33,670 bases of DNA from an uncultured bacterium (GTDB lineage Bacteria; CSSED10-310; CAZUFC01). Of this stretch, positions 15,865-33,574 are shown in pieces (the first letter of the stretch is position 1; every line of letters begins with the position of its first letter). The notes below the pieces were generated by a model. It saw only the letters and a list, made by a program, of their open reading frames with translations. It had not been told where the DNA came from and searched no databases. The stretch covers positions 27,601 through 61,270 of the forward strand of contig CAZUFC010000042.1 of the NCBI GenBank assembly GCA_964619725.1, in the 5' to 3' direction. Made by a program: the position numbers and the translations under genes.

Positions 15865-15901
15865 GAACATCTTCGCCTTATGACAGGAAGGCCTGCCCCC
15901 G

Positions 15902-17443
15902 ATGAATGAATGGTTTTTCATCAGAAGAGAAAACGTTATTATTTACGGGCCTATGAAGGACGGGTTGAACTATGCGGCCTATCATTGCGGGGGAGCCCTG
16001 ATTGATTGGCTGACCGTCAGAAATATCGGAGAGAAAAAATCAATCGGCATGCATCTTGAGATGCAGCTTGTAGACTACAGCGACATCTGCCATGTTTACA
16101 TACCTGAACTGGCAACCGGAGCATCCATAAATTTTGATGCGCCGTTTTTTCATTTGCATTCCGAGGCATTCCGCCGCAGCATGGAAACAACCAAAACCTC
16201 ATTGCACGTCGTCATAAACGGCGCTCACATACCCGAAGCGGAAAAAGATGTTAAGATTTACGGGTTCTGGGACTGGTCTTATTCTAAAGAAGACAGAAAA
16301 ACAATAGCGGCATTCGTTTCTCCCTATCATCCTTTCGTCGAAAATATAATCCGGGACGCTCAGATATATTTAAAACGACTGACCGGAACGGACGATTTCG
16401 AGCAATTTTTGAAAAAGGACAGGAACGATGCTGAATTATTGGTCCTGAAAAGCATTTATCAGTGTCTTTCTCAAGGCAGGTCGATCAACTATATATCACC
16501 GAAAAAGAAAACCGGCTCCAGAGATGATAAATTTTTTCAGACCCTCAGGCCGCCGGACCGCATATTTTCCAAAAATGATCCTTTCAAAGGCAAAGCCACC
16601 TGCCTGGATTTAACGGCGTTGACGGCCGCCTGCGTTGAAAATGTCGGCTTATGTCCTTTGATTATATTTCTTGGCAGAAATGAGGAAGATTTATATCACT
16701 GCTTCATCGGCATCTGGGCGAGCTCAATACCCGGCGCCAGGCATCTGATAAACGACAAGGAATTATTAAAAAATTACATTGACTCAGGACAGCTTATCGC
16801 AGCGGAAATAACAGGAGCATCAGAAGGAGCATATCCCGATTCAGTAAAATTGACGTTTGAACAGGCCGTGAGGAAAGCCCGGGCTCATCTTGACCGGAGT
16901 CCCTGGTCAGGAGCAGTGGATATTTCTGCATTGAGACCCCCGAACGGAGAAATAACGCCCCTGGATTCTCCCTGGCAGCCGGAAATAGCACAGGCATATA
17001 ATATGGCCCGGCAATTCGCCGCTCTGGAAAACAGCCGTGCCGTCGAAACAACACACCTGTTTTTCGGTCTGATCGCTTCAAGAGGCAAAGTCGTGCAATG
17101 GATGTTCCGTGAGGCTGATCTTGATATAAGCTCAATCCTCAATTCGTGGCATCGCACACATAAAGGCATTGATAGAGCGTTAAAATACCCTGATTTTTAT
17201 ACGCGGAATTTCTTTGAGATTAAGACCCTGGCCCGGGAGTACGCCGCTAAATCCTTCAGTCCATCCGTTCATGAGCAGGACTTAATGTGGGCTATTCTGG
17301 ACAAAGGCTCCAGCAGTAAAAAATTAAAGAAAATATGCTACAATTACGGAATCGATCTGGATAAATTATCCAAAATCCTGGAACTTCGCTACCCGCGCTT
17401 CTCCCCCTACTTTGAAACAGAAACCATGCCCGAAATCGACTGA
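15902..17443 (+). CDS. Transglutaminase/papain-like Cys-His domain fused to a C-terminal double Clp-N repeat domain
   Basis: FQTLRPP...ATCLDLTALTAACVENVGLCPLII...HCFIGIW...AAEIT; then ARQFAALENSRAVETTHLFFGLI and AREYAAKSFSPSVHEQDLMWAIL. Confidence 0.7.
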   Translation: MNEWFFIRRENVIIYGPMKDGLNYAAYHCGGALIDWLTVRNIGEKKSIGMHLEMQLVDYSDICHVYIPELATGASINFDAPFFHLHSEAFRRSMETTKTSLHVVINGAHIPEAEKDVKIYGFWDWSYSKEDRKTIAAFVSPYHPFVENIIRDAQIYLKRLTGTDDFEQFLKKDRNDAELLVLKSIYQCLSQGRSINYISPKKKTGSRDDKFFQTLRPPDRIFSKNDPFKGKATCLDLTALTAACVENVGLCPLIIFLGRNEEDLYHCFIGIWASSIPGARHLINDKELLKNYIDSGQLIAAEITGASEGAYPDSVKLTFEQAVRKARAHLDRSPWSGAVDISALRPPNGEITPLDSPWQPEIAQAYNMARQFAALENSRAVETTHLFFGLIASRGKVVQWMFREADLDISSILNSWHRTHKGIDRALKYPDFYTRNFFEIKTLAREYAAKSFSPSVHEQDLMWAILDKGSSSKKLKKICYNYGIDLDKLSKILELRYPRFSPYFETETMPEID

Positions 17444-17800
17444 GCTGAACAAGCGCTGCGGTTTCTGATCATCAAACGAGAAAATTTTTCTCAAGGTCAG
17501 GAAGGCAACGATTTGCGCAGCAGAAGCGACCGTCACGCCGAAGCCCCGGCGCAAGCGGATTATTGCGTATACGTTGAATGAGCAAATCCTGAGTGTGAAG
17601 CAGCATTGAGGAAAACTGGCCGTTTATGGACAGAAAATGGAGAGTTTGCGGACAGGAGTCGATACGAATCATTGCAAAGAATGCTCAAGACCCTTAAAAT
17701 GAACTCGCTGGATTTTCCCGTTTTCCTTAGAAATCGGGCGTATAATTCTGCGAAGGCGTTGACCGGCCTGTCCGGTTTTGTTTTTAAGACGGGTTCAGAG

Positions 17801-18817
17801 ATGAAAAGTTTTTCCTGGCATAAAATTCTGAATAATTACGAAAAAATTGAACGCCATCGTTTCTATATCTTGAGCTTCTCTTTTCTGTTCATAATCTGTT
17901 TTTTTTATTTTTTAAAAAACGTTCATTATGAGAATTTCTTCATCAAGCAGGAGAAACCCGTTATTTCCCTGGATGCCGTTGCGGAAGTGGAATTCCCTGA
18001 AGCCGTCTTGGACTCTTATGACGCTTATCCGGTCACCTACAGATGGAAAATAGAGGACAACGGCGACAAATGGCCCGCCTTGAACTTAAAAGTAAAATCC
18101 AAATTCGTCACTCGTTCGGGAGAAATAATAGCGGAAGACGATCATTTTCCGCCTGTTTCCGCCTCGACCTGGAAACCGGGGCAAACCATCCAATACTCCC
18201 GTTATGTTTTTTTTCCCAAATTAAGCAAACGTGAGAAAGTTTCCGTGTTTTTGGGGCTGGAAGACGAAAAAAAACAAAGAGCCGTAAGATTGCCGGGACT
18301 GCATTGGAAAAACGATCTGAACTGGGCAGGCAACGTCGTAGTAAAAGCCTCCAAAACAGCGACAAACGTTCAAAAAGGACTTTTGTATTATTACGGCTGG
18401 TATCCCTATGAAACAGGAGGCCAAGAAACGAAGGAATATAATTTCAGGCGATGGATGGGAGGCGAAGGTCTGGTTTATATAAAAAATACTCATGAGGATT
18501 CCATTCTGTATATTAAAGCCTGGGCGCCTCGTGACGTCTATCCGGAGCCTCCTGAGATACAATTCGTCCTGAACGGAATAACTCTGGAAAAATTCAAACT
18601 CGCTTCGGAAACCATCTCGAAAAAATATTCCATTCCTGCAGAATGGCTTGGGGATGATTTCAGGGTGCTCTTTAAAATAATCGTCGACCAAACGTTCATT
18701 CCGAAGGAAGTGGGTTTCGGAAAAGATAATAGAAAACTTGGCCTGTTGCTTAATGCGCTCGTTTTCAAGAAAAACGATAACTCAAAAAACAAAAAAATCA
18801 TATCCAGCGCTTCCTGA
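17801..18817 (+). CDS. Membrane-anchored extracytoplasmic beta-rich hypothetical protein
   Basis: One N-terminal TM helix (FYILSFSFLFIICFFYFL) then beta-rich domains. Start placed at ATG 17801 after TATAAT at 17741; ends 3 nt before rlmH. Confidence 0.7.
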   Translation: MKSFSWHKILNNYEKIERHRFYILSFSFLFIICFFYFLKNVHYENFFIKQEKPVISLDAVAEVEFPEAVLDSYDAYPVTYRWKIEDNGDKWPALNLKVKSKFVTRSGEIIAEDDHFPPVSASTWKPGQTIQYSRYVFFPKLSKREKVSVFLGLEDEKKQRAVRLPGLHWKNDLNWAGNVVVKASKTATNVQKGLLYYYGWYPYETGGQETKEYNFRRWMGGEGLVYIKNTHEDSILYIKAWAPRDVYPEPPEIQFVLNGITLEKFKLASETISKKYSIPAEWLGDDFRVLFKIIVDQTFIPKEVGFGKDNRKLGLLLNALVFKKNDNSKNKKIISSAS

Positions 18818-19808: not shown

Positions 19809-22628
19809 TCATCTGATCATTATTTCATGGACAGACCACCAGAATTCGCTTTTTTCGGTTAAGACCGCCGAAAAACAGGAGGCTTCTGATTGAGGAAAAG
19901 AAATCGTGAACTCATTCGTCAATTCATCATAAGAAAAGGAAGGCTTCAAAATGAGAGGTTTTTCGTTTTCGTTATGACATTCTATTCTTAAATTCCTTGG
20001 AAAATCGTTTTTGGAGCTTCCCATTTTAAACAGGATACTCTGCAATTCACGAGGCTGTGAGAAGCAAATTTTCAGGTAGAATCCCGGACTCATGGGTTCC
20101 ATTGTGGTCCATCGAGTATTTATATTGCTGTCCCTGGCGTAAAGAAGCTCCTGGGGGTTCTTATCGGAAATTAAAACGGCGCCGTCAGGAAGAGATTGGA
20201 AGGCGGATTGAACGTTTACATTGTTTTCTGAGTATTGTATCAATCCGTCATTTCTTTTGACGATAAGTCGGTATGAACCTTCCGAGTTTGGAGTTTCCAG
20301 GATGAGAGCCAGCCTGGCGCATTGGCCCGGGAATACATCATGCGGTATGGAAAAAACTTCTCTGTCAGATATCCTGCAGGGATAACATTCATTTTTATCG
20401 TCAGCCCAGGCAAAAGCGGCGTTCAGTTTCAATTGCGCATTTTTTTTCCAGATTTTTTCGTCCTGATTTTCGATTAAAAATTCTGCAGAGAATTCTTTCC
20501 CTGCGGCGACCGGCGCCACAGGCAAATAAATTTCGCGAAAAACATCAACATCTGCAACCTGGGTTTTCTCCATCGGGCAAATTACTTGCACCGATCCCTC
20601 CTTGCGTCCTTTCAATTCCCAGGGCGAATCATTCGACCATGCGAATCTGTAGTTGTACCGGCCGGTCTGATTCAACACAGGCCATTCAATGCTGAGCGGT
20701 AAAATCGAATAGGGTTCGTAATGAAAGGGAATCCTCAGTTTCCGTGAAGAGGCATGTGCGGTATTTTCAGCGGAGAAGATACTTAAATCAATGTTTAGTC
20801 GATCAGGAACGATGAAATTATGTTTGGGGCTGGGATTAATGAGGAACGCTGGAGCAGATATTTCGGCGTTTGCGGGGAACCGGCGCGGCAGATTATCTAA
20901 AATTTGCAGCCTGTTTTCTTCTGCATTTTCTTCGATGACCTCGTAAACGCTCGTTTCATCGAATTTTTTCGTCAATTTAAGGTATTCGCCGGCGAATTCT
21001 CCAGTCATGTCGATCGGCTGGTCGTGATGAGAGTGAACGAATATGTGCGAGACTTTCATGCTTCTCATCAGGTCGAGAGATTTTTTTGAGGGAAATTCAT
21101 TCACGATCTTTTTTATCCGTCCATACGTAGGGGGATAATATCCGCTGACGCCATTCACGATCGGGTTCCAATGAAAAACGGAGAAATAAACGTATTCATA
21201 TTCGTAATGAGTCATGGGAAGTTCAAGGACAGCCTTTATTTGATCGTTATTTTGTTTTGCCCAGGGGTACACGGAAGGAACCTGATGCTCGGCCGGGGCT
21301 TTCACTGTTGATAAAGGAGCGTGAAGCGTTTCGATATAAGCAAACAAAACCAGAATGGCCCCGGTAATATTTTTAATCTTAGCTGATTTAATATTTTTAA
21401 GGACAATATCCACAGTCAGTCCTGCTGTCATGGCAGCAGCCAGTTGAAAAAGCAGGGCAAAGCGCGAGGGGACCCTCATAGCCCCGAAACCGGGCAAAAA
21501 TCTTAAACAGTAGTCATAAGGCAATTTAATAATCGTTTTTCCGTCAGCTCCCCATCGCCATTCGGGGCCCAAAGAGAGCACGAAAGAGATGCAGGCGAGC
21601 AAAATGAAAAAAATATAATTTTTGAAATTTCTCCTTTTAAAAGCCAGGATCAACGGCGTCGCCAGCAGAGCGACCCAGGCTGTTGCCCCGGGAAATAGTT
21701 GCGTCTCCGGCCCGTAATGTCCGTTTTGCTTCCCGATAAAAGCGTGAATGAATCGATAAGGGATATTGGTCGGATCAGGAATGACATAGTCTCCGGGACT
21801 CGCTGAAAGACCAGCGATCATTTCTTTCGGAGCTTGAACATTCAATTCTTCGTTCATTTTAAAATAGGGAGCGGATAGGGCTAAAAACGGGATCATCAAT
21901 AAAATGAAAACCGCCAAAGCTCTGAGGAAACTTTTTCGTTTTACCTTTCCAGGATCAAAAATCATTAATGTCAGGATGTATACAAACAAAACCAGCATCT
22001 CGAAAAACGCCAAATAATAGGATGAGAAAATCTGCAGGGCAAAAAACAAAGCTGCAGGCGCCAGAAAGGCAAATTTTTCCTGCTTAACGAATTTCATGAA
22101 GAAAAACATGCTTAAAGGAAGCCACTGAATATTCAATAGTTGAAAGTGACCCAACTGGGCATATCGCCAGGGCGAATAAGCGAATATTACGCCGGCGAAC
22201 AAAGCGGCAGCCCATCCCGCATTGAACTGCCTAATCCACAAAAAAACGCCCCATCCGCTCAGAACAAAACTGCAAAAAATCAGAAAATTCAACATGAGAA
22301 CGGGATTGGTCATTCCCATAAGATAAAAGGGATAAGCAACGACAGCGACGCCGATAAGATGTTCTGAAAAAGCGAGGGTACAGGGGTGCGGATATAGAAT
22401 GTTTCCCTGGAAAAAGTCGTTCAGTCCGGTCTGGAATTTATGAAAGTTCCATTGAAGAATCCATATGTTCAGCCGGGTATCATACGGTTCGGGGATACTC
22501 TGTTTCATGTCGACGGACAAAGGAAACAGCGCACAGAATGACATAAAGCTGAAAAGAGCCAAAACAAGAATTATGCCGAGGGTCTTGTTGAAAGGCTTCG
22601 ATTTTTTCATTCCATGAAATTTCAGCAT
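19809..22628 (-). CDS. GT-C/YfhO-like polytopic membrane protein with C-terminal Ig-like and discoidin (F5/8C)-like domains
   Basis: NILYPHPCTLAFSEH, MRVPSRF, VLELP and IVNGVSGYYP motifs; C-terminal ARDSNINTRWTT. Confidence 0.7.
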   Translation of the reverse strand: MLKFHGMKKSKPFNKTLGIILVLALFSFMSFCALFPLSVDMKQSIPEPYDTRLNIWILQWNFHKFQTGLNDFFQGNILYPHPCTLAFSEHLIGVAVVAYPFYLMGMTNPVLMLNFLIFCSFVLSGWGVFLWIRQFNAGWAAALFAGVIFAYSPWRYAQLGHFQLLNIQWLPLSMFFFMKFVKQEKFAFLAPAALFFALQIFSSYYLAFFEMLVLFVYILTLMIFDPGKVKRKSFLRALAVFILLMIPFLALSAPYFKMNEELNVQAPKEMIAGLSASPGDYVIPDPTNIPYRFIHAFIGKQNGHYGPETQLFPGATAWVALLATPLILAFKRRNFKNYIFFILLACISFVLSLGPEWRWGADGKTIIKLPYDYCLRFLPGFGAMRVPSRFALLFQLAAAMTAGLTVDIVLKNIKSAKIKNITGAILVLFAYIETLHAPLSTVKAPAEHQVPSVYPWAKQNNDQIKAVLELPMTHYEYEYVYFSVFHWNPIVNGVSGYYPPTYGRIKKIVNEFPSKKSLDLMRSMKVSHIFVHSHHDQPIDMTGEFAGEYLKLTKKFDETSVYEVIEENAEENRLQILDNLPRRFPANAEISAPAFLINPSPKHNFIVPDRLNIDLSIFSAENTAHASSRKLRIPFHYEPYSILPLSIEWPVLNQTGRYNYRFAWSNDSPWELKGRKEGSVQVICPMEKTQVADVDVFREIYLPVAPVAAGKEFSAEFLIENQDEKIWKKNAQLKLNAAFAWADDKNECYPCRISDREVFSIPHDVFPGQCARLALILETPNSEGSYRLIVKRNDGLIQYSENNVNVQSAFQSLPDGAVLISDKNPQELLYARDSNINTRWTTMEPMSPGFYLKICFSQPRELQSILFKMGSSKNDFPRNLRIECHNENEKPLILKPSFSYDELTNEFTISFPQSEASCFSAVLTEKSEFWWSVHEIMIR

Positions 22629-22682
22629 ATACTACTTTAATCAAGAGAAGAATTCACAAATTTATACAGCGCTCAGAGGGAA

Positions 22683-23687
22683 TCAACTAAGGGTTTGAAG
22701 CGCAGTGACTGCTGCAATGGTAACTATATCGTCGACGGAACAACCTCGTGAAAGATCGTTGACCGGTTTCGCCATGCCCTGAAGAATCGGACCTATGGCT
22801 TCTGCCCCTGCCATTCTTTGAGCCATTTTATAGCCGATATTGCCGGCGTTGAGGTCCGGAAAAATCAGTATATTCGCTCTGCCTTGCACCGGACTGTTCG
22901 GGGCTTTACTGCGCGCCGTCGAAGGCATGATTGCCGCATCCAGTTGAAGCTCACCGTCGACGACCAGGTCTGGGTTTCTGGAGCGAGTCATTTCTGTTGC
23001 CGATATTACTTTATCCGCCAACTGGTGTCGTGCGCTGCCTTTTGTGGAAAAAGAGAGAAACGCGATTCTGGGAGGTTTTCCGATAAGATTCTGATAAGTT
23101 TCCGCTGAACTCAGGGCAATCTCGGCCAACTGTTTTTCATCAGGGTCCGGGGTAACTCCGCAATCCGCAAAAAGCATAGTGCCCTCATCTCCAAACCGTA
23201 CATCAGGAAAAACCATTATAAAACATCCTGAAACCACTGATATCCCTTTTCGTGCTCTAATCGTCGTAAGCGATGCCCGCAAAACGGCGCTGGTAGTATT
23301 CATCGCTCCTGCGACCATTCCGTCCGCATATCCCTGCTTAACCAGCATGGCGGACAGCAATAAAGGGTCTTTCATCATATTTCCGGCCTGATGGAATCCG
23401 ACGCCTTTCTCCCGCCTGGCTTCGTAAAATGCAAAAACCAGTTCTTTGTTATAAGGATTCTCCTCAACCTCAATAAATTCAGTGCCGGCGAGAGATACGC
23501 CCGCTTTTCGAGCCGTTTCTTCCGCTTCTTTCCTGTTCCCCGTCAATAAAGGCTGGGCTATCCGTTGTTCTTTTATGATGTTCACAGCTTTCAACGTTCT
23601 CTCATCATTCGTTTCCGGAAAAACAATTTTCTTCTGCAGCTCAGCCGCTCTTCTTCTTAAATTTTCCAAGGTGTTCATGTTCATCAT
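22683..23687 (-). CDS. pta: Phosphate acetyltransferase
   Basis: IVFPE, FADCG, LSFSTKGSA, DGELQLDAA, FPDLNAGNIGYK, KPVNDLSRGCS. Confidence 0.96.
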   Translation of the reverse strand: MMNMNTLENLRRRAAELQKKIVFPETNDERTLKAVNIIKEQRIAQPLLTGNRKEAEETARKAGVSLAGTEFIEVEENPYNKELVFAFYEARREKGVGFHQAGNMMKDPLLLSAMLVKQGYADGMVAGAMNTTSAVLRASLTTIRARKGISVVSGCFIMVFPDVRFGDEGTMLFADCGVTPDPDEKQLAEIALSSAETYQNLIGKPPRIAFLSFSTKGSARHQLADKVISATEMTRSRNPDLVVDGELQLDAAIMPSTARSKAPNSPVQGRANILIFPDLNAGNIGYKMAQRMAGAEAIGPILQGMAKPVNDLSRGCSVDDIVTIAAVTALQTLS

Positions 23688-23701
23688 CCGTTTAATTTAA
23701 T

Positions 23702-25351
23702 TTATGTTTCGATTCCTAAAGAAAAAATTATGTCGTTCATCCTGTTATACTGTTCTATTTCTACGGACCCCTCTTCAAGAGATTCCAACAGGGACATCAA
23801 TATCCTTCCCTTTCCTTCGCGTCCATACATGACCAATGCCTGCTTGAGTTCCTTTCTCTTTTTTTCCAGCGTTTCTTCATCTATAAATTGACGGGGTTTT
23901 AAATCCTCGTCTCCCGTTTGAACCTTGACCGCCTTTTCATCCCGCATGAATTCGAATTCGAATTCATCTTTTTCAGCATCAAAAAGCAGGTGCCCCAGGA
24001 TATCCTCCATGTAATCATCTTTCAGAATGCCGAATTCCTGTTCCAGATCAATTTTGTAAATAGGAGCCACCGGTTCGTATATCGGACGCGAAAAATCGTC
24101 AAAGTATTCTTCCACCAACAACAACTTTATGCTGTTCGCATCAAAAGGAGCCATATCGAACCGTCGCTCTATTTTAACCGTAAAATCATTCACGCTTTTT
24201 TTCGGCTTAAAACGCTGAACGATGGGTTGAAACGAAGGCGTCTTTCCCGCCACTTCCAATCCGATGGAATGAGTATAAATATCTTTCAATTTGAAATCTT
24301 GCGCTTTTGTCGCGCAATAAGCCAGGCCTTCATGAACGTAATCCGCAACAGCGCCTTCCTCGTAAATGATCGCTTCCGGCCGAACCGCTTCTGCGATCAG
24401 CTCCCTTACTTTGGGTATTTTCATTCCTCCGCCCGTCAGAAGTATTCTGTCTATTTCTTCCGGTTTTTCCGCCGAGTTATTCAGAAACCGCATCAGCATG
24501 TCCCGGACGTTCGCTAAATCAGGAAGCGCTTTCCTTTCAAAATCCTCCCTGGTGATCTTCAGTCCTTTTAACGGAACTTCAAATACATCGTTTTCAATCG
24601 TTACGGCAGATTTGTGCGACAACTCTATTTTTATTTTTTCCGCCAGATCAAGCAGAGCGAAAAAAGTGGGTTGTCCCCGCAACCGCGCAATGTCCATATT
24701 GATCGGAAAGGGTCGGCCGGTTTGCCTTCTCCAGGACTCCTTTATCAATTCCAGGACAAGATAATCCAAATCCCGTCCCCCCATCCTGTTGTTCCCTTCG
24801 CAATACATCAGCTCAAAAACATTGTTTTTCCATTCCCCAATGGTTATGTCGGTGGTTCCGCCGCCGTAATCAAACACGATAAACTTGCCGTCGATGGGTT
24901 TTTCCTGGCGCATCTGATAACCGATCACTGCGGCTGCAGGTTCCTTTATCAGTTGTATGTTTTCGATATATGCATCATAAAATGCAGACCGGTATGCCCT
25001 GCGATGAAGCAAACCGAAATCATTGGGAATGCCTACTGCAACACCGTCGATTTTTTCCTTGATTTTCCCCTCCACAATCTGCTTGACCCTCTGCACTATT
25101 TTCGTAAATAAAAGCTCCGTCCTGCATCCCAGCGATTGCTCCTTGAAAACGCGCCGCTTTAAATTATCCAGATATATCGTCTCCTCATATTCCCTTATCC
25201 GTCGCGCCTCCGCTCCCACCAGTATCCGATCACCTTTGCGCGCAACCCCTACAGGAAAATCCAATCCCTTTGAAATCCAGGTCCTGGGACAGCCTCCATC
25301 TATCGCCGTGCAAGCCACGCTGCTCGTCCCCAGGTCTATCCCTACCCTCAA
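23702..25351 (-). CDS. Divergent Hsp70-family ATPase (not canonical DnaK)
   Basis: GIDLGTS, KEPAAA, FDYGGGTTD, GGRDLD, AEKIKIELS, LTGGGMKIP, linker LKDIYTHSIGLEV; divergent C-terminal half; TTG start with GAGG RBS. Confidence 0.9.
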   Translation of the reverse strand: MRVGIDLGTSSVACTAIDGGCPRTWISKGLDFPVGVARKGDRILVGAEARRIREYEETIYLDNLKRRVFKEQSLGCRTELLFTKIVQRVKQIVEGKIKEKIDGVAVGIPNDFGLLHRRAYRSAFYDAYIENIQLIKEPAAAVIGYQMRQEKPIDGKFIVFDYGGGTTDITIGEWKNNVFELMYCEGNNRMGGRDLDYLVLELIKESWRRQTGRPFPINMDIARLRGQPTFFALLDLAEKIKIELSHKSAVTIENDVFEVPLKGLKITREDFERKALPDLANVRDMLMRFLNNSAEKPEEIDRILLTGGGMKIPKVRELIAEAVRPEAIIYEEGAVADYVHEGLAYCATKAQDFKLKDIYTHSIGLEVAGKTPSFQPIVQRFKPKKSVNDFTVKIERRFDMAPFDANSIKLLLVEEYFDDFSRPIYEPVAPIYKIDLEQEFGILKDDYMEDILGHLLFDAEKDEFEFEFMRDEKAVKVQTGDEDLKPRQFIDEETLEKKRKELKQALVMYGREGKGRILMSLLESLEEGSVEIEQYNRMNDIIFSLGIET

Positions 25352-25352
25352 A

Positions 25353-25571
25353 TTACCCCTCCTCTTCCTCGGCGCCGTCGGCCTCCGGTATATCGACTTT
25401 CCTCCCGGATATAAAGCTGATGTCGTTCCATTTTCCGTCCACTACATCCAATTCGGGCAATTCCTGAAAAACATCTCCCTCCCCTTCATATTCCTGTAAT
25501 TTCTGCAAAGCTGAATCACCATATCTCTTCAGCAATTCAGCCAATACGCGTCTAATTCTTTCCGCCGGCAA
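25353..25571 (-). CDS. Small acidic hypothetical protein (72 aa)
   Basis: TTG start 7 nt after GAGGTG. It overlaps the upstream stop by 20 nt and ends 1 nt before the Hsp70 start, filling the gap exactly. Confidence 0.7.
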   Translation of the reverse strand: MPAERIRRVLAELLKRYGDSALQKLQEYEGEGDVFQELPELDVVDGKWNDISFISGRKVDIPEADGAEEEEG

Positions 25572-28500
25572 TATCCATCACCTCTTTCAGAAATTCGATG
25601 ACATGACCGTAAATGTAATTTACGTCAAGATGCTCGCGCTGCCTGTGTATGAGCCGTTCCCTTTCCAGCTCCCTGACCAGCTTTACCAGCTTGCCCGGAT
25701 TCAATACCGCCAAATTGTACTCCTCAATTACCTCCTTCTTTTCCCTCTCGACTTCCTCCGCCTTATTTTCATAGTCTCTCAACTTTTCGATCTTTTTAAA
25801 TATGCCGTGCCTTATGTTCTGCCTCGCGTTCACTCTATCCAGTTCACGCCTAGCCATCTTTTCAGCTTCTTCAATTCCCTTTCCGTTTCTTACGATAAGT
25901 TTTTCGATCTCCCTCTGTATTCGCTTCGCCTGAGCTGTCCTGCCATGATATTTGTCATACTTTGCCGCCAGGTTTCTGCGTCTTAGTATTTCTCTTTTTT
26001 TCTTTTCGAGTTTCGCCCACTTTTTTAATCCCTGTTGGGGAGTTTCTCCGAGTCCGGGAATAGCGACCAAAGTGTGCATCAGGTATCTTCCGATTACCTG
26101 AAGGTCAGGATTCTCCACTAGTTTATATATTTTTCTTCTCGCTTCCTCAATCGTTTTATTGTCGACATCATTCCGCTCGCCCTCACCTGCGGCAATCTCG
26201 TAATTCAAAAACGCGGAAATAAGCGCGCCTTCATCAGTTTGGAGATATCGCATAAATTCCACGGAATTGAGAATATCCGCTGCAGTTGAAATGTCTCCCT
26301 TTTCTAAATATTCGGAAACTATGCCCAAAGGAACGACTGAATATGCCGTATTTTGCGCGATAATATGAGGCGCCAGGCTCTTTGTCGACATCCAGGCATA
26401 ATAGGCATCCCGGTAACGCTTACTCTCAAAAAGCAAGCGCATCATCACCGCTCGCACCTCAGCATCCTCCCTGGGCTGCATTAACTGCCATTTAGCCGCC
26501 GCCTGCAACCGCAGCAACGAATCTGTCTTCTCGTTTTTTATGCTTGAAAGCAAAAAAGAACGCAGCAACTCATAATCAAATGTTAAATCTTGCCAATTTT
26601 CTAAAAATATATTTTGCACATCTGCCGCTCCGGCTCCGAGCCTCTTTGAAAAAATGCCGAGTAATTCCGAAGCCGTTTTATCATCGATTGTTTCCAGGTA
26701 GTTTATCTCCTGAAAAGCTTTGAATACCTCTCCTTTTTGAAGCTTATCCACAAAATGCTGCTTGACCAGATATTTTTTGAGTTCGGGGAAATTATTTTTG
26801 CATGTGGGATCGTCTGCCGCCGCTTTTTTGAAGGAATCAAGCAGAAACTCGGTATATCCCTTGCTCTCCAATATTTTTCTTATTTTTTCCATCACTTCAC
26901 GGCCGGATAAACACTTTTTCCCGGACAAATAATTCTCAAGTTCAAACCCATCAAGCTCAATCCCCGTGAATAAACGCTTTCTGACTTTTTCCGTTAACGG
27001 GACCGCCTTCTCATATTCCTTCTCCACGCGCCTCAACGCTCGTCTCAGCATCACGGTATCCGTCTCGCTCAAAGGCAGGTCCTCCGCCGCCAGTTTCTCA
27101 ACGCCCAACTCAAGAAACGCCTCCAGCTCATCATAATTAAGTCCGGCCCGAAGCGTCCTTACGAAAGTTGCAGGAAATAATTTATTAAAAATCCTGAAAC
27201 TCAACGCCTTTTTCAGCGCCTTTGTGAATCTCTCCTTATAATCTGCCGGAAAACGGAATTCCAATTTATCGAGATATCTCCTGAAACTTCCAGACTCTAT
27301 CGCCAAATAGACGCACAATACGGCATATTCTTCCAGGTGGTGAAGATTATGGGCTTCCATTTCATGCAAAAGGGGCGAAAGCAATTCGTCATAATTCTCC
27401 GGGTCCTCTGCCGCCGTCCGGATAATCCTTTCCAGTAATTCCGGGTCTTTCATTTTTTTCCAGGCTTCAAAGGCTGATTTAAGTTCTTTTCTTTCTATCT
27501 GGATGAGTGTCTTGAGTTCCTTGAGGACAGGTTCTTTCTCCAGCGTTTCTTCCGGTATTTCCATCAGTTCCTGATAATTCATCCTGGCAGCATCCAGACA
27601 AATCTGCATTATCTCAAATTCAGGCAATTCCATCCCGGGCGGCGCCGCTTTTTTTATTTTATCCAAATATGAGTTAAACTCGATAAGAACTCGATCCGAT
27701 AAATTTTTATCATCCTGATTGAGAACGTCGAGTGCCTTCTGCAGCAAATCCTCATAATCGTCAGACGAAAAAACCTCCCTGAATCGTAAATATTGCGACA
27801 TGCGGCCGAGAGGATACAGAGACTGTAAATTTTCACACAAAATTAAAGCATCGCGCCATTGTCCTGTCTGCGCATATCGAATCATTTTCATTAACTTGAT
27901 GATAAAGAAACCGGGGAAATCCGGTTCAATGAGCAAATCAAAAATTTTGACGACTTCATCATCAGTTAATGATTTCTTTTCCTGTCTTTTTATATAGTCG
28001 ATAAATAAAGAAACAGCCTTCGCCATGTCGGCTTCCATGCGGAGATGACCGTCCAGATAAAAATAGAGGTATTCGTCCAACTCTTCCGGCTCATATTGCT
28101 GCAATAATCTATAAGCTTCGCCGTGCTTGCTCTCCTTATACAAATAATGACACTGAAGCAATCGCACCCGCTTGTATTCTTCTGTATCTTCCATTCCCAT
28201 TTCTTCCGCCAGCCTCAACATCAGCTTCACATCCGCCAGGGTCCAGTTCCCATAAGGCCAATCAAAATTTTTAAACAAACGCTGAAGCAGAATTTTCAAA
28301 TGCTGTTTCGTCAAAACACCGAATTCTTCCGTCGACTTCGGCATCTGCGAAGTTGCTTGCTTTCTGCCTGGCCGCAGCTTCTCATCCAGCATTTCAAGAA
28401 AGCATATGAAAAACTCGGGGTCCCGAAAATGTTGCAGCTTCTCCAACCCTTCTATGATATCCTGAAGAGCGACCGGTTTTTCCTCCCTGGCTCGATACGC

Positions 28501-31221
28501 CAACATGTCCAGAAAAGCTGTGAGGTTACCCTCATAATAAATCGTATCTTCCGATTTTTTCAATAAACGCAGAAGTCTTTTCCTGTCGTAATCATAATAA
28601 GCCAACTCGGTTATGTATTCATAGGCCGTCTGAAAGTCGCCTTTCTTTTCCGCCATATCGGCTATAATAATAGCTCCTTCTACAATCGGTTTTCTCTCGG
28701 TAACGTCAGAATATTTCAAAAACTCATCCCATATAAGCAGCCAGGTATCCATCGGGAAATTATCCATTTGTGTTGTAAATTTAAGCGCGTTAAGCAAAAC
28801 TTCGTCGTCAGCATCCATGATGTAATTTTCGACCGCTTTTTTAACGTCGTTTGAATATTCATCAAAATGACTGATTAATTCTGCGAGTTGACGGACGTCC
28901 AATGCTTCCGGGAATCCTTCCAGTATCCAGTTCCTGAATCGGGAGGACCTGGTAGTCAAAAATTCCCCGAAAACGGCATAATACGCATCGGGATCATACA
29001 TAAGGTCTTCTCTGTATTTTTTCTTCTGATGAAGCCCTATATTGGGGTCTTTGACGATTTCAATTTTCCTTTCAACCGAAATCGCTTTTCCGGATTGCAT
29101 TAGAATCTCGCTCAATAAGCGCTTCGCTTCGCCGGGCAAGGGCTCATTCAAATAATCCTCTAGCGCTGACGCTTCCTCCATTTTCAATTCCGGAAGGTAA
29201 CGTTTCAGCAGCAGTTCGTAATCTTTCGCTTTAGGATCGGATTCTGGCGGAAAAGAATCGAGCAACAGTTTAACGGCGTCCAGAAGAGTAATATTTCGCT
29301 TCAGGGTTTCAAAGTGTTCCTGTTTTAATCTTCGGATGTAGTCGACGCCTTTTATGACATAATCTTTTCTGTCTGCTGCGACCAGTTTTTCAGCAATTTG
29401 ATCTTTTTGCCCATTCGGTATCTGTTTCCATTTTTGGTCCAGGACAGGGAGTATATCGGGTTGTTCTTTTGAGATAATAGTTTTAAGCGTTTCGACCATG
29501 GCAGGCATTTTCAGGTCATTAATCTTCTGAAGCAACTCCTTTTCCTTGCGTCCGCCCTGTCCGGCAAAAGTTGCTATCAATTTACCCTGAAAGTTTTCCG
29601 GTAATTCGTCCACATATTCCAGGAGATAATTCAGGTCGACCAAATCCTTGTTGACTTCCAGCAATTTGAAAAAGAGGTCCTTGTCCTCCTGTTTCAACCT
29701 GGGCAACAACTCCTCAAATATTTTTTTAGACGATAAAGACCCTTTTCTGATTAAAAAGGATATCAGCAGCTTGACCGTAAGGCTGAGTTCGTCGTCATCA
29801 AACGACTTTAAAATTTCGAAGGCCTTCGTCAGCTCAGAGCCGGTCCATTGGCGTTCCGTCAATCGATCGATAATGATCTTCCGGTGCTCCTCCCTGTGAA
29901 GCGGCAGAGTCTCCAATATCCATGGCGCATTGATCCGGACGTCGGAATTAATGAACGACATGGCCGCTTTCCTCCTGCTTTCGGTTTTCCTCAGCAGAAT
30001 GACCCGGTCGCATAAAACATCAAGCATACTTTTGTCGTTAAGGTTGATCAGGAATTCTATGGCGCTTTCTCGCACGTTTTGGCCGTTAACGAAACGCTCC
30101 ACCGCCGCCAGACGCTTCTTTGGATCAACCGACTCCATGAGCGTTTTGACTTTCGAGGCTAAAGGTCCCGGAAGCCTGTCCAACTCCTGAAGCGCTTCAT
30201 CTATATTTTCCCAGCGAATAAAGTCTTCAAGCAGTTGAGCGAACCTCTTTTCACGTTGCGGCCTGGAGAAAAAAACAGCGTTTTCCGACAGATCGATTAT
30301 CGTCGACAGACTGGCGCTCGCCAGCAGCTTCCTTATGCGCTCTCGAATATCCGCATTTTCCTCATCAAGATACCAGTTCAGAATCTCTCCGGCCGTCTCA
30401 TGCATGCCTTCTGTGCTTAACTTTCCTAATATTTTATCCTTTAATTCGTTTGTCCCGCGCTCGCGGACTTTTGAAATTACAAAATTCCTGTTTCCTGCTT
30501 CGGGATGCTCAAGAAGAATTTCCGCCGTCGCAGAAACGACTTCCGCAGATTCATCGTCCAATCTGCTTAGAATATAACCCCGGAAATCTTCCAGCGCTAT
30601 TTTAGATAATCCCCTGACCGAATGAAGCCTGATCTCGGCATCCTCATCTTCCAGCAAACGCTTGAAAGCATCAGCAGCCTCCTCCGGATATCCCATGTCC
30701 GCCAGCTCAAGCACAATCTCCTTCCTTTGACTGCGGCCCGCGTTGGAAAGCTGATCAAGCAGCCATCGCGTTCGTTGAAATTTCTGACGTATCTTATCCT
30801 CTTCCTCCTCTTCCCAGCGTCGGAAATCCGCAATCTTGCTGTATTTCGCTCCATATTGCCGGACACGCCGGATCAACTCCTCGTCGTTGGTCACGACTAC
30901 TATGCTCTGAGGCTCTAAACTCTTCCTCACAACTGATACTATGCGGTCATCCGCTTCCCTGGGCGGCCTGGAGTAAAGTATTGAAACGCGCCCCTGACTT
31001 CTTTCCAGATCGCTTTGATGTATCAGGCTCGTGTAATTGCTCTTGTTGTCGTAAACCAGGGTTATCGGTATCGACGTATTCGTGTGAAATCTCTGCATTA
31101 AAGAAAATACGTTCTGTCGGACCTTCTCCCATAAATTATGCTCTTCAACATAGTCGCGATCCCACAACGCTAAAATATAATTATAAGCATCGACGATGAT
31201 GCTTTTCGGTTTGCTCTTCAA
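25552..31221 (-). CDS. 1889-aa protein: N-terminal NYN (YacP/Rae1-like, PIN-fold) RNase domain, HEAT repeats, long helical/TPR-like solenoid, C-terminal coiled coil
   Basis: IIVDAYN...LVYD...YSRPPREADDRI...VVVTNDEEL; HEAT-like LLEDEDAEIRLHSVRGL, LDDESAEVVSATAEIL and LDEENADIRERIRKLL. Confidence 0.82.
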   Translation of the reverse strand: MKSKPKSIIVDAYNYILALWDRDYVEEHNLWEKVRQNVFSLMQRFHTNTSIPITLVYDNKSNYTSLIHQSDLERSQGRVSILYSRPPREADDRIVSVVRKSLEPQSIVVVTNDEELIRRVRQYGAKYSKIADFRRWEEEEEDKIRQKFQRTRWLLDQLSNAGRSQRKEIVLELADMGYPEEAADAFKRLLEDEDAEIRLHSVRGLSKIALEDFRGYILSRLDDESAEVVSATAEILLEHPEAGNRNFVISKVRERGTNELKDKILGKLSTEGMHETAGEILNWYLDEENADIRERIRKLLASASLSTIIDLSENAVFFSRPQREKRFAQLLEDFIRWENIDEALQELDRLPGPLASKVKTLMESVDPKKRLAAVERFVNGQNVRESAIEFLINLNDKSMLDVLCDRVILLRKTESRRKAAMSFINSDVRINAPWILETLPLHREEHRKIIIDRLTERQWTGSELTKAFEILKSFDDDELSLTVKLLISFLIRKGSLSSKKIFEELLPRLKQEDKDLFFKLLEVNKDLVDLNYLLEYVDELPENFQGKLIATFAGQGGRKEKELLQKINDLKMPAMVETLKTIISKEQPDILPVLDQKWKQIPNGQKDQIAEKLVAADRKDYVIKGVDYIRRLKQEHFETLKRNITLLDAVKLLLDSFPPESDPKAKDYELLLKRYLPELKMEEASALEDYLNEPLPGEAKRLLSEILMQSGKAISVERKIEIVKDPNIGLHQKKKYREDLMYDPDAYYAVFGEFLTTRSSRFRNWILEGFPEALDVRQLAELISHFDEYSNDVKKAVENYIMDADDEVLLNALKFTTQMDNFPMDTWLLIWDEFLKYSDVTERKPIVEGAIIIADMAEKKGDFQTAYEYITELAYYDYDRKRLLRLLKKSEDTIYYEGNLTAFLDMLAYRAREEKPVALQDIIEGLEKLQHFRDPEFFICFLEMLDEKLRPGRKQATSQMPKSTEEFGVLTKQHLKILLQRLFKNFDWPYGNWTLADVKLMLRLAEEMGMEDTEEYKRVRLLQCHYLYKESKHGEAYRLLQQYEPEELDEYLYFYLDGHLRMEADMAKAVSLFIDYIKRQEKKSLTDDEVVKIFDLLIEPDFPGFFIIKLMKMIRYAQTGQWRDALILCENLQSLYPLGRMSQYLRFREVFSSDDYEDLLQKALDVLNQDDKNLSDRVLIEFNSYLDKIKKAAPPGMELPEFEIMQICLDAARMNYQELMEIPEETLEKEPVLKELKTLIQIERKELKSAFEAWKKMKDPELLERIIRTAAEDPENYDELLSPLLHEMEAHNLHHLEEYAVLCVYLAIESGSFRRYLDKLEFRFPADYKERFTKALKKALSFRIFNKLFPATFVRTLRAGLNYDELEAFLELGVEKLAAEDLPLSETDTVMLRRALRRVEKEYEKAVPLTEKVRKRLFTGIELDGFELENYLSGKKCLSGREVMEKIRKILESKGYTEFLLDSFKKAAADDPTCKNNFPELKKYLVKQHFVDKLQKGEVFKAFQEINYLETIDDKTASELLGIFSKRLGAGAADVQNIFLENWQDLTFDYELLRSFLLSSIKNEKTDSLLRLQAAAKWQLMQPREDAEVRAVMMRLLFESKRYRDAYYAWMSTKSLAPHIIAQNTAYSVVPLGIVSEYLEKGDISTAADILNSVEFMRYLQTDEGALISAFLNYEIAAGEGERNDVDNKTIEEARRKIYKLVENPDLQVIGRYLMHTLVAIPGLGETPQQGLKKWAKLEKKKREILRRRNLAAKYDKYHGRTAQAKRIQREIEKLIVRNGKGIEEAEKMARRELDRVNARQNIRHGIFKKIEKLRDYENKAEEVEREKKEVIEEYNLAVLNPGKLVKLVRELERERLIHRQREHLDVNYIYGHVIEFLKEVMDIAGGKN

Positions 31222-31469
31222 TACTCACCGCCCCTTTAAAATCCTTTTGGTTTGCGTTCCCGGCAATGTCCTGTGCGGGGACGGACAAAAAATTAAAATA
31301 TCACGATACCGTGCCAAAACTCAACCCCCCTCGCTCACTGCCTTCAGCCGCTCGACTCCCTTTTTTCATTTATTTCCCGAACTTTTTTTTCAATACCCTG
31401 GAATAATTTTCAAAAAGGTTCTATAACATAAGGGGTTTTTCGCCGAGGATTCTTTTGACGGAGATTCTG

Positions 31470-32459
31470 ATGCAATACAAAGGAAAATACGAGATATTCG
31501 ATTATCAAAAAATAAAAAGGTATTCCCTGTCCGAACGCAAGAACAAGTTCAAGCGCGATATGCTTATCGAACCGTCCCAAACCGTTTCAAGCTCAGAACT
31601 TACGGCGCCGGAACATCTTAAAAGCGTCGCCGCCGCCGTCATCAAGGCTCATCGAAAAAAGCGCCCTGTCATCTGGATTTGCGGCGCCCATTTCCTTAAA
31701 AACGGTCTCTCTCCACTTCTGCTGCACCTGATGCGGCGAGGAATCATCACGCATGTCGCCGGCAACGGAGCTCTGGCCATACACGATTTTGAACTGGCGC
31801 TGATAGGAGAAACTTCGGAAAATGTTCCCGGCGCTTTGGGCAAGGGGCTTTTCGGCATGGCGAGGGAAACCGGCCGGTTGATGAATCTTTGCATCAATCA
31901 TGGTTATTCCCTTAAATTGGGTCTGGGCGAAAGCCTGGGGCGATTCATCAATGGCGAAGCCTTTCCTGAAAAAGCAGATTTCCGCTTTCCTGAATTATCT
32001 GTTTTCAGACTGGGGTATGAATTGAATATTCCCGTTACAGCTCACGTCTCTATCGGCTGCGACATTATTCATCAGCACCCGGAATTCGACGGATGCGCTA
32101 CAGGAGGCTGTTCCGCCATCGATTTCAGTATTTTTGCTCATGCCGTGGGCGAGCTCTACGGAGGAGGCGTCATTCTGAATATCGGATCAGCCGTCACCGG
32201 ACCGGAAATACTGCTGAAAGCCATTTCCATGAACGCCAACATCGGCAAATGCCCTCAAAATATCGTCACGGCCGATTTCGATATGAGAGTCGCTCCTGCT
32301 CATCAGGAAAATGAAAGCATTCCCTCATACTATTTCAGAGACATAAAATCCATAGTGGGAAGAATCCCCCGGGTCGCCCGCGGAACTGGTTACCTGATCG
32401 AAGGTAATCATAAAGATACCCTGCCGCTCTTCTACCAATTGATTTCCGAAAGGCTGTGA
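31470..32459 (+). CDS. Deoxyhypusine-synthase-like fold hypothetical protein
   Basis: GAHFLKNGL, HDFELAL.GETSENV, IGCDIIHQHP and NIGSAVTGPE motifs. Start is ATG 31470 or TTG 31455. Confidence 0.6.
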   Translation: MQYKGKYEIFDYQKIKRYSLSERKNKFKRDMLIEPSQTVSSSELTAPEHLKSVAAAVIKAHRKKRPVIWICGAHFLKNGLSPLLLHLMRRGIITHVAGNGALAIHDFELALIGETSENVPGALGKGLFGMARETGRLMNLCINHGYSLKLGLGESLGRFINGEAFPEKADFRFPELSVFRLGYELNIPVTAHVSIGCDIIHQHPEFDGCATGGCSAIDFSIFAHAVGELYGGGVILNIGSAVTGPEILLKAISMNANIGKCPQNIVTADFDMRVAPAHQENESIPSYYFRDIKSIVGRIPRVARGTGYLIEGNHKDTLPLFYQLISERL

Positions 32460-33574
32460 TGGCGACGAAAAAAATTTCCATGCTGAATCAGCTCCATAAG
32501 CTTGCCTTCTCAATTATAAAGCCGAATCATCCCTCCACGCTGGCCTTCTACGTCACCCTTCGATCAGAAAAGAATCCGCTCTTTCCTGAAAATCTTGAAA
32601 AATTGAAAAATCAGTTCAACCAACGGGAATTGTCTCTGAATGAATATAAACTCATCGCTCAAAGAGCCTCTCCGCTCTTTCACGTCCTTTTCGCCGGCGC
32701 TGATCCTTTTATGAGGGACGACCTGCCCGAATTAGTCCTCGCCTTTCCCCATTACGCCAAATCGCAACTCATCTCAATTACGACATGCATACCCGAAAAT
32801 CCCGCAGTACCGGAAGCTCTTTCAAAAATATGCGCGGATTGCCGAAACATCCCCATAAACCTTTACTGCATCATTCCGGTTGAATCTCTCTATGATCCCG
32901 CCGAACCTGATCTGTCACCCGATGAAAAATATCTGAACTCATTGGAACATTTGCAGCGATTAAGAGAAAAATTCGCCCATTTATCGTTCAATGTCATAAC
33001 CGCTGCAGGACCGCAAAAAGAGGATGAGCTGAAACGATACCTGGACTTTGTCCGTCGCAGATTGAAACCGGACTACCACCAGGTTGCCCTTACGGATCAT
33101 TCTTTCTGGGACCCTGATGATGACGGGCGGTACGACCTGTCCATTCGACTGATGAAAAACCAGGCCGGCTGGAGCTCGAAAAAAGCCGGTCGATTCCAGC
33201 GGTCCTTCAATGAATTGCTGCTGAATACGCATAAAAAAATTCATAAGACGCAGAAACTGCCTTATAAATGCCTGGCCGGTCGCAAGTTGGCCGTCTCCGA
33301 CCCCACAGGCATCATCTATCCATGCGAAACCCTCTGGTTCCATAAAGAAAAATTTCCCGCCTTCCGCGACTACAGAATCGGAAGTTTTCGCGTCACGGAT
33401 TATCGCTGGCCGATGATTCAGATGACCGATCAGTACCGGGAAATTACAGAATTCATCAAAAATAAAGGTTGCCTCTGCGCCTGGGAGCATGCTTCAGCCT
33501 GTTCGCTGATGCATTCGGCATCTCACTGGATTAAAGTGGTCAAAAAAGTATTCAAACCCCGTCGCAATGCGTGA
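32456..33574 (+). CDS. Radical SAM/SPASM-like protein lacking the CxxxCxxC motif
   Basis: FYVTLR start strand, GADPFMRDDL (GGEP equivalent), C-terminal CLAGR...GIIYPCE...CLC; overlaps the upstream stop (GTGA). Confidence 0.7.
   Translation: MMATKKISMLNQLHKLAFSIIKPNHPSTLAFYVTLRSEKNPLFPENLEKLKNQFNQRELSLNEYKLIAQRASPLFHVLFAGADPFMRDDLPELVLAFPHYAKSQLISITTCIPENPAVPEALSKICADCRNIPINLYCIIPVESLYDPAEPDLSPDEKYLNSLEHLQRLREKFAHLSFNVITAAGPQKEDELKRYLDFVRRRLKPDYHQVALTDHSFWDPDDDGRYDLSIRLMKNQAGWSSKKAGRFQRSFNELLLNTHKKIHKTQKLPYKCLAGRKLAVSDPTGIIYPCETLWFHKEKFPAFRDYRIGSFRVTDYRWPMIQMTDQYREITEFIKNKGCLCAWEHASACSLMHSASHWIKVVKKVFKPRRNA

Follow-up and report, generated by a model that had tools for sequence, protein, structure and literature searches.

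The window analysed here is a 33,670-nucleotide stretch of contig CAZUFC010000042.1 from an uncultured bacterium of the lineage CSSED10-310. Our subject is a set of three adjacent minus-strand genes in it, which encode a giant protein of 1889 amino acids (aa), an acidic protein of 72 aa and a divergent Hsp70. The giant protein carries a nuclease domain of the YacP/Rae1 type at its N-terminus, followed by a long helical repeat region. The features of the locus are:

25552-31221, minus strand: gene for the giant protein, P0001, 1889 aa, TTG start (open reading frame (ORF) and translation, full-length homologues)
30766-31200, minus strand: NYN_YacP (Rae1-like) endoribonuclease domain of the giant, residues 8-152 (PF05991)
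30451-30780, minus strand: PBS-lyase-type HEAT repeats of the giant, residues about 148-257 (PF13646 HEAT_2, alphaRep profile match)
25555-30450, minus strand: remainder of the giant, residues 258-1889, an alpha-solenoid and a basic, charged C-terminal stretch (AlphaFold2 model to residue 1200, conservation profile)
25353-25571, minus strand: micro-ORF for the acidic 72-aa protein, TTG start (coding score, coupled arrangement)
23702-25351, minus strand: gene for the divergent Hsp70, P0003, 549 aa, TTG start (PF00012 match)

The 3' end of the giant gene overlaps the start of the micro-ORF by 20 nt (25552-25571), and a single base, 25352, separates the stop codon of the micro-ORF from the TTG of the Hsp70 gene. 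Each TTG is preceded by a Shine-Dalgarno-like motif: purine-rich AAAGGGGCGGTGAG upstream of the giant gene, GAGGTGA 6 nt upstream of the micro-ORF and GAGGAGGGG 4 nt upstream of the Hsp70 gene. A preliminary description of this DNA, made from the letters alone, had reported three coupled minus-strand genes with this overlap, a 1-nt gap and TTG starts throughout, and the coordinates and junctions are as it claimed. Its parts list (a giant protein of helical repeats with a YacP-type NYN RNase, together with an acidic micro-ORF and a divergent Hsp70) is likewise borne out by Pfam and by the charge of the micro-ORF product. In sequence alignments, the relatives of the giant and of the Hsp70 start within a few residues of the TTG-equivalent position. 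The first in-frame methionine of the giant is residue 42, past the first catalytic aspartate. The TTG starts of these two genes are therefore backed by the relatives, which start there, and by the loss of the catalytic aspartate that a start at Met42 would entail.

The assembly of the locus is supported. Its sequence was found in four DNA sequencing runs, all from one microbial-mat study. One contig of run X1, which is possibly the source sample, covers 22600-29207 with zero differences, and short contigs of the three other samples cover all three gene junctions, also with zero differences. Because all four runs come from one study, this agreement is an assembly check and not independent support. 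No RNA run was listed as holding the locus, the four DNA runs being its sole holders. A low-depth contig of run X3 joins 23724 directly to 25986, skipping 2261 bases that contain the Hsp70 gene and the micro-ORF. The shorter side of this joint has only 21 letters and the joint is seen in no other run; we set it aside as unreliable and probably an assembly artefact.

Residues 8-152 of the giant match the Pfam family NYN_YacP (PF05991) with an E-value of 1.5e-16 and 61.3 bits, against a cut-off of 24.6 (65.9 bits in the genome-wide search). A phmmer search of the PDB with residues 1-200 returned nothing at E<=1, and a family profile was required: that of the four giants described below matches the sequence of Bacillus subtilis Rae1 (5mq8) with an E-value of 1.2e-7. 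Residues 6-144 of an AlphaFold2 model can be superimposed onto 5mq8_A with a root-mean-square deviation (r.m.s.d.) of 3.0 Å for 127 residues (Z 14.8, 24% sequence identity), which is the best match among 48,161 PDB chains. Compared with 31 small YacP proteins, the giant keeps all four conserved acidic motifs: D11 (DAYN), D58 (VYD), D91/D92 (EADDRI) and D113 (TND). D11 and D91 align with Asp7 and Asp81 of Rae1, and D7N D81N is the published catalytic mutant of that enzyme (PMC10351889). Given the four acidic motifs and the correspondence of D11 and D91 to D7 and D81, the nuclease of the giant looks active. The four motifs are also present in the giants P0126 and P0127. The partial giant P0128 is without the ADD motif that contains the Rae1 D81 equivalent, its Pfam NYN match spans residues 4-56 and lies below the cut-off, and it may be a catalytically dead member of the family.

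The same genome also encodes an ordinary stand-alone YacP/Rae1 (G000:C8:78711-79145(+), locus L018), an open frame of 179 aa that scores 69.7 bits and has all four acidic motifs; the nuclease of the giant is thus an additional paralogue. With its 1889 aa, the giant lies well outside the small stand-alone size typical of YacP (about 130-240 aa). Longer YacP-bearing proteins were scanned among the 111 database matches described below; they comprise a glycosyltransferase fusion, P0159, and others of 213-413 aa in which no second family exceeds its threshold.

The nuclease domain is followed directly by HEAT repeats. Residues 153-237 match HEAT_2 (PF13646; 6.8e-9, 36.3 bits, cut-off 27.7), and the Pfam scan of the giant found no family besides this and NYN_YacP. 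Positions 148-257 of the family profile match artificial alphaRep chains, which are PBS-type HEAT repeats, with an E-value of 4.7e-13, and structure comparison of the giant model with alphaRep and YibA gives Z 11-12. The model, built from the four sequences, covers residues 1-1200 only, with a mean predicted local distance difference test score (pLDDT) of 69 and a predicted TM-score (pTM) of 0.34. It shows an alpha/beta domain (residues 1-128), a long helix (130-158) and then an unbroken array of short helices; pLDDT is 80-89 at residues 90-560 and 680-880. After Rae1, the best matches of the model among the PDB chains are HEAT/ARM repeat proteins. Foldseek returned generic HEAT/ARM solenoids only (CAND1, mTOR, importins, Ltn1 and Ski3), with a TM-score of about 0.1. 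Residues 1201-1889 are expected to be helical as well. The preliminary description had also used the label TPR (tetratricopeptide repeat), which we drop: no TPR family was found in P0001 at E<=0.01, and a sub-threshold TPR_19 match occurs only in the relative P0128. Conservation among the giants is highest at residues 1-240, 721-780, 1261-1380 and 1561-1680, with identity of about 50% at residues 1-60 against 10-20% across most of the solenoid. A motif scan of the giant found no Walker A, CxxC or HPD motif, and we ruled out a concealed P-loop NTPase because of the missing Walker A motif. Residues 850-1889 gave no usable lead in the ESM Atlas, the best score of 0.90 coming from mixed, unnamed clusters.

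The Hsp70 is recognisable as such, and strongly divergent. PF00012 matches P0003 over residues 81-371 only, with an E-value of 9.5e-36 and 123.6 bits (cut-off 20.6), and the NCBIfam equivalogs score far below their cut-offs (119.7 vs 822.55 bits for DnaK, TIGR02350; 103.5 vs 708.55 for HscA). In an alignment of 54 sequences, P0003 keeps all invariant columns of the ATP site: D6, G8, T9, K65, E137, G163, G165, T166, D168, G191, G192, D194, G307 and G308. The interdomain linker is partly kept (L355, D357). These features predict an ATPase-competent protein. Its layout comprises a nucleotide-binding domain (about residues 1-355), the linker, a beta-rich region resembling a substrate-binding domain and three C-terminal helices. 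In the AlphaFold2 model the nucleotide-binding domain has a pLDDT of 85-95, whereas residues 368-490 have 41-60; the beta strands at 354-478 and helices at 492-544 are thus modelled with low confidence. Foldseek aligned P0003 over the full length of DnaK, BiP, Ssb and Ssz1 (E 1e-31 to 1e-24). In a quick maximum-likelihood tree, P0003 and one relative, P0006, form a clade with support of 1.0 on a stem of 2.9 substitutions per site, and P0003 is about five times as far from DnaKs as DnaKs typically are from one another. Since the same genome contains two canonical DnaK-size genes, along with other Hsp70-like ORFs, P0003 is an extra, specialised paralogue.

Neighbouring pairs of divergent Hsp70-like ORFs were also seen in two other genomes of the phylum (G005:C45:18204-19214 and 21474-22478; G009:C45:12047-13018 and 15102-16055). 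These are open frames of 576-695 aa with a profile match that runs from the N-terminus and scores only 54-86 bits. They may represent other non-canonical Hsp70 modules.

The micro-ORF product has a net charge of -10. By eye, its N-terminal segment looks helix-like, and it has a short hydrophobic run (ISFISGRKV) and a tail rich in Glu. Its coding score, in a codon model derived from 939 long ORFs of the same genome, is 0.43 bit per codon in frame; this exceeds 91% of 300 real 72-codon windows and was reached by none of 600 out-of-frame windows. Based on this score and on the coupled arrangement, we take the micro-ORF to be probably a real gene. Its product matches no family in Pfam, PADLOC, NCBIfam or PHROGs and gave no lead in the ESM Atlas, and BLAST against the proteins of the relatives and the whole genome found chance-level matches only. 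The idea that the micro-ORF encodes a C-terminal extension of the giant, set apart from it by a frameshift, was ruled out, as the relatives of the giant stop at the same alignment column. Compared with type II toxin-antitoxin pairs, the gene order (large gene first) and the size are atypical, and there is no match to an antitoxin family in Pfam or PADLOC. A complex prediction for the Hsp70 and the micro-ORF product, run without controls, scored 0.00 against a mark of 0.32, which is evidence neither way.

The giant and its Hsp70 belong to a tiny, lineage-restricted family from uncultured hosts. An exhaustive phmmer search with residues 1-1200 of the giant against 1.84 billion representatives of clusters that together comprise about 15 billion proteins yielded 111 proteins at E<=0.001: the giant itself, three other giants, and 107 proteins, nearly all of 126-295 aa, that align to the N-terminal nuclease or HEAT part only. 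The three other giants are P0126 (1910 aa, 6e-77), P0127 (1925 aa, 1.5e-63) and P0128, a partial sequence on an NCBI contig of 7,028 bp (1131 aa, 6e-42). All four are homologous from end to end, with 20-32% identity (32% between P0128 and P0126). When the full-length giant was used in a word-indexed search, 8000 candidates were scored and none other than the giant itself reached E<=0.001. For one relative, the source gives the label candidate division CSSED10-310 bacterium.

Within the phylum, the giant is present in only one of 14 GTDB genomes, the one studied here; four others have small matches of YacP size. The Hsp70 subfamily is likewise confined to this genome of the 14 (1031 bits, vs at most 120 bits elsewhere), and each of the two families is thus found in none of the 13 other genomes. 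Two scans of GTDB species representatives found neither a giant nor a relative of the Hsp70. One of them, with P0006 as query, found no locus; the other, with an alignment of the giant family, picked up one genome locus, and the same alignment picked up four loci in metagenome contigs. All five match residues 5-151 only and are thus NYN-domain matches.

When the Hsp70 was searched against 5.8 billion clusters (8000 top-word candidates scored), one other lineage was found, represented by P0006 with 40% identity and 98% coverage. The next matches were ordinary DnaKs, with about 29-32% identity over 58-75% of the query. The P0006 cluster has two members of the same sequence except for the start, one on an NCBI contig of 4,236 bp and the other, P0236, on a JGI contig. 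The sole JGI contig of P0236 measures 40,584 bp, as does the sole JGI contig of the giant P0127. From these equal sizes we infer that P0127 and P0236 lie on one contig, not necessarily side by side. The Hsp70 thus seems to travel with the giant. The preliminary description had called the Hsp70 dedicated, and the long branch shared with one other lineage, the probable common contig with P0127 and the joint absence from 13 phylum genomes agree with that.

We propose, tentatively and at rather less than an even chance, that the locus encodes a chaperone-coupled, Rae1-like RNase machine that acts on ribosome-bound mRNA and constitutes a rare accessory module. Rae1 is reported to cut mRNA only in connection with stalled ribosomes and at their trailing edge, feeding collided ribosomes to trans-translation (PMC12407103; PMC13622287). 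In our proposal, the solenoid would be a docking or sensing platform that either gates the nuclease or directs it to its target, which would most likely be mRNA bound to ribosomes. The private Hsp70 would spend ATP to assemble, activate or reset the solenoid, and the acidic protein of 72 aa, produced by coupled translation, would act as a stoichiometric cofactor. Because Rae1/YacP is now tied to stalled or collided ribosomes, this reading is more specific than the sensor-effector system of the preliminary description, in which the solenoid holds the RNase inactive and the Hsp70 arms it; both of those statements are pure conjecture. The genome retains an ordinary YacP, which makes the giant a specialised derivative. 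More generally, with a stand-alone YacP and two DnaK-size genes present, the giant and P0003 are best seen as extra, specialised copies.

Several points weigh against this proposal. Physical interaction among the giant, the micro-ORF product and the Hsp70 is something we infer, as are the ribosome targeting, the direction of regulation and the biological role. The association with ribosomes is carried over from B. subtilis Rae1, to which the domain is 24% identical. P0128, by having no equivalent of Rae1 D81, suggests that RNase activity is dispensable somewhere in the family. The arrangement of the three genes is known from this locus alone, the relatives being known by protein only, and the locus is listed in DNA runs and in no RNA run. 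No partner Hsp70 was found for the 19,807-bp Logan contig of P0126 among the 8000 top-word candidates scored, which is not proof of absence. Pfam detected no DnaJ or GrpE family in seven locus proteins, and there is no HPD motif in the giant, the micro-ORF product or the relatives. Finally, the model of the giant ends at residue 1200.

The alternative that survives best, doubtful as we consider it, is an anti-phage or conflict system. An invader protein would be detected by the solenoid, the Hsp70 would relay or license this signal, and the NYN RNase would then degrade RNA of the cell or of the virus in an abortive infection, with the microprotein as inhibitor or antitoxin. A nuclease, a repeat scaffold and an ATPase are a typical layout of conflict systems. 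Hsp70-like units with HEAT-like repeats stand beside RNases in type III CoCoNuTs as described in PMC11090510, and HSP70 is part of the GTPase-centred conflict systems described in PMC7159879. However, the GTPase, McrC, HEPN, tubulin and GrpE parts that define those systems are absent from the locus proteins, and the Hsp70 motifs are intact here, in contrast to the degenerate motifs described for CnuD (PMC11090510). The very patchy distribution (one of 14 phylum genomes, four lineages in 1.84 billion representatives) and the fast divergence of the giants, at 20-32% identity, would suit a defence gene, and the three TTG starts suggest low expression. Against this, none of 72,556 plasmid records and 50,697 phage records matched the giant in tblastn, and the scanned neighbours (pta, RlmH, cytochromes, regulators) include no integrase or transposase family. 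PADLOC-DB 2.0, a library of 2023, has no match for the giant or the micro-ORF product and only a weak one for the Hsp70 (PDC-M61B, 3e-4), and PHROGs gave generic Hsp70 matches only. Thus the suggestion of the preliminary description that the locus might serve anti-phage defence found no positive evidence: defence models, neighbours and phage and plasmid records all fail to support it, and the flanks are housekeeping genes.

It seems improbable to us that the giant is mainly a structural scaffold, with an RNA-binding or vestigial NYN domain, the Hsp70 as its dedicated folding chaperone and no regulated nuclease switch. Most of the giant is indeed repeat scaffold, the layout of the Hsp70 is complete and chaperone-like, and P0128 has retained the solenoid while losing the D81-equivalent motif. 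Three of the four giants keep all four acidic motifs, however, the NYN-HEAT part is the best conserved, and with two canonical DnaK-size genes the genome is already provided with chaperones.

Quite improbable, in our judgement, is a full bacterial counterpart of collided-ribosome surveillance. In such a system a giant HEAT solenoid, resembling GCN1 or Ltn1, would span stalled or collided ribosomes, its own Rae1 domain would cut the mRNA, and an Hsp70 resembling Ssb or the ribosome-associated complex (RAC) would handle the nascent chain or reset the sensor, with the help of the microprotein. The comparison with the GCN1 and Ltn1 HEAT solenoids and with Ssb/Ssz1 is an analogy only, based on shared elements: a HEAT-type solenoid of giant size, an Hsp70 and a nuclease of a type linked to stalled ribosomes. 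Ltn1 in ribosome-associated quality control (RQC) complexes (9ofv_e, 8aaf_e) and Ssb/Ssz1 are among the structural matches, but the similarity is generic (TM-score about 0.1; Z 8.7, r.m.s.d. 35.7) and shows no homology. If this reading were true, the giant would be the first prokaryotic solenoid-type sensor of ribosome stalling.

A fusion of an NYN nuclease to helical repeats has a precedent in protein-only RNase P (PRORP), which consists of helical pentatricopeptide repeats (PPR) and an NYN nuclease. PRORP resembles the giant in that an NYN-superfamily nuclease is fused to a helical-repeat domain that binds RNA or the target. It differs in NYN subfamily, repeat type, domain order and size, and it has no chaperone partner.

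The closest known relative of the nuclease is Rae1/YacP of B. subtilis (5mq8), which shares with the giant the family PF05991, the fold (Z 14.8), the four acidic motifs and the catalytic pair (D7/D81 in Rae1, D11/D91 here). Rae1 stands alone, with about 170-180 aa, whereas here the domain makes up the first 8% of an 1889-aa solenoid protein that has a private Hsp70. Type III CoCoNuTs, with their CnuD/CnuCD proteins, bring together an Hsp70-like ATPase with nucleotide- and substrate-binding domains, HEAT-like repeats and an RNase (PMC11090510); like the present system, they are predicted to act on RNA and on translation. Pfam and PADLOC detected no McrB-type GTPase, McrC/DUF2357, coiled-coil nuclease or HEPN domain in the locus proteins, and the giants have no Walker A motif. 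In the CoCoNuTs described there (PMC11090510) the RNase is of the HEPN type, not NYN, and the HEAT repeats are on the Hsp70 in CnuD rather than on the nuclease protein as here. The motifs of CnuD are degenerate and those of P0003 intact, a distinction drawn from the published description only (PMC11090510). GTPase-centred conflict systems (DO-GTPase/tubulin/HSP70; GAP1-N2 with HSP70, GrpE and DnaJ- or TPR-fused proteins) resemble the locus in having a non-housekeeping Hsp70 beside large repeat proteins (PMC7159879). None of the GTPase, tubulin, GrpE and DnaJ parts described there was found in the locus or its scanned neighbours.

As the preliminary description had surmised, the combination corresponds to no named system in PADLOC, Pfam, NCBIfam, PHROGs or the literature searched. 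In that literature we came across neither a fusion of a YacP/Rae1 domain to a giant solenoid nor a pairing of such a domain with an Hsp70. Rae1 nucleases are a known kind, as are private-Hsp70 modules; what appears to be new, judging from the encoded proteins, is a Rae1 nuclease on a giant solenoid with its private Hsp70. The link of Rae1/YacP to stalled and collided ribosomes is recent, and to date the enzyme is known as a small protein that stands alone. Its placement on a solenoid of about 1,700 residues with an Hsp70 of its own, if true, would be a new way to target or gate a nuclease, and a third kind of private-Hsp70 module beside the GTPase-centred and CoCoNuT systems. Should the locus serve defence, it would be a new defence system; should it serve translation surveillance, it would parallel the logic of eukaryotic GCN1, RQC and RAC. 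With four lineages and uncultured hosts, its general importance is limited unless the mechanism is new.

Downstream of the Hsp70 gene lie two further genes on the same strand:

22683-23687, minus strand: pta, phosphotransacetylase (PF01515, 4.9e-119), possibly co-transcribed with the three genes, but functionally outside the module
19809-22628, minus strand: polytopic membrane protein of 939 aa with no family, the possible end of the unit

pta starts 14 nt past the Hsp70 stop, and the membrane protein gene follows 54 nt past pta. No terminator-like site was found between the Hsp70 gene and pta, nor before about 19076; there is one at 19076-19059 on the minus strand. Given the 14-nt distance and the missing terminator-like site, the unit may be longer than three genes, and a transcription unit of five, including pta and the membrane protein, is possible. 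Thus, of the "three-gene operon" of the preliminary description, the coupled triad stands and the limit at three genes does not. Pairing an RNase/Hsp70 module with pta, a gene of central metabolism, would be odd. It is very improbable that adjacency is meaningless and the three genes are unrelated passengers in this longer operon, with a micro-ORF that is perhaps untranslated: pta follows closely with no terminator-like site and the micro-ORF has no homologue, but the 20-nt overlap, the 1-nt gap and the good Shine-Dalgarno motifs point to coupled translation, the coding score was reached by none of the 600 out-of-frame controls, and both rare families occur together here and, to judge from the equal 40,584-bp contigs, in a second lineage, while both are absent from the 13 other phylum genomes.

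A promoter scan performed at chance level (17 found, 18.3 expected), and we claim no promoter. The guanine-cytosine content across the locus is 0.43-0.50, similar to the rest of the window. The scanned neighbours in the window encode an EamA transporter, a subtilase, a hybrid histidine kinase, a multihaem cytochrome, a sigma-54 activator, RlmH and a GSU2086-family protein; a PADLOC scan of 12 further ORFs of the window gave nothing but generic subtilase and sigma-54 AAA matches. The window is rich in genes that resist annotation; no Pfam family at E<=0.001 was found for several large ORFs (644, 264, 513, 403 and 572 aa; 11768-13702 on the minus strand, 15070-18817 on the plus strand and 6813-8531 on the minus strand). 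The GSU2086-family gene (31455-32459, plus strand; NCBIfam, 1.7e-99) is transcribed divergently from the giant gene. It is overlapped by a 372-aa ORF (32456-33574, plus strand), close to where the window stops at the contig end, whose product has a weak match (0.0029) to radical-SAM/SPASM maturases.

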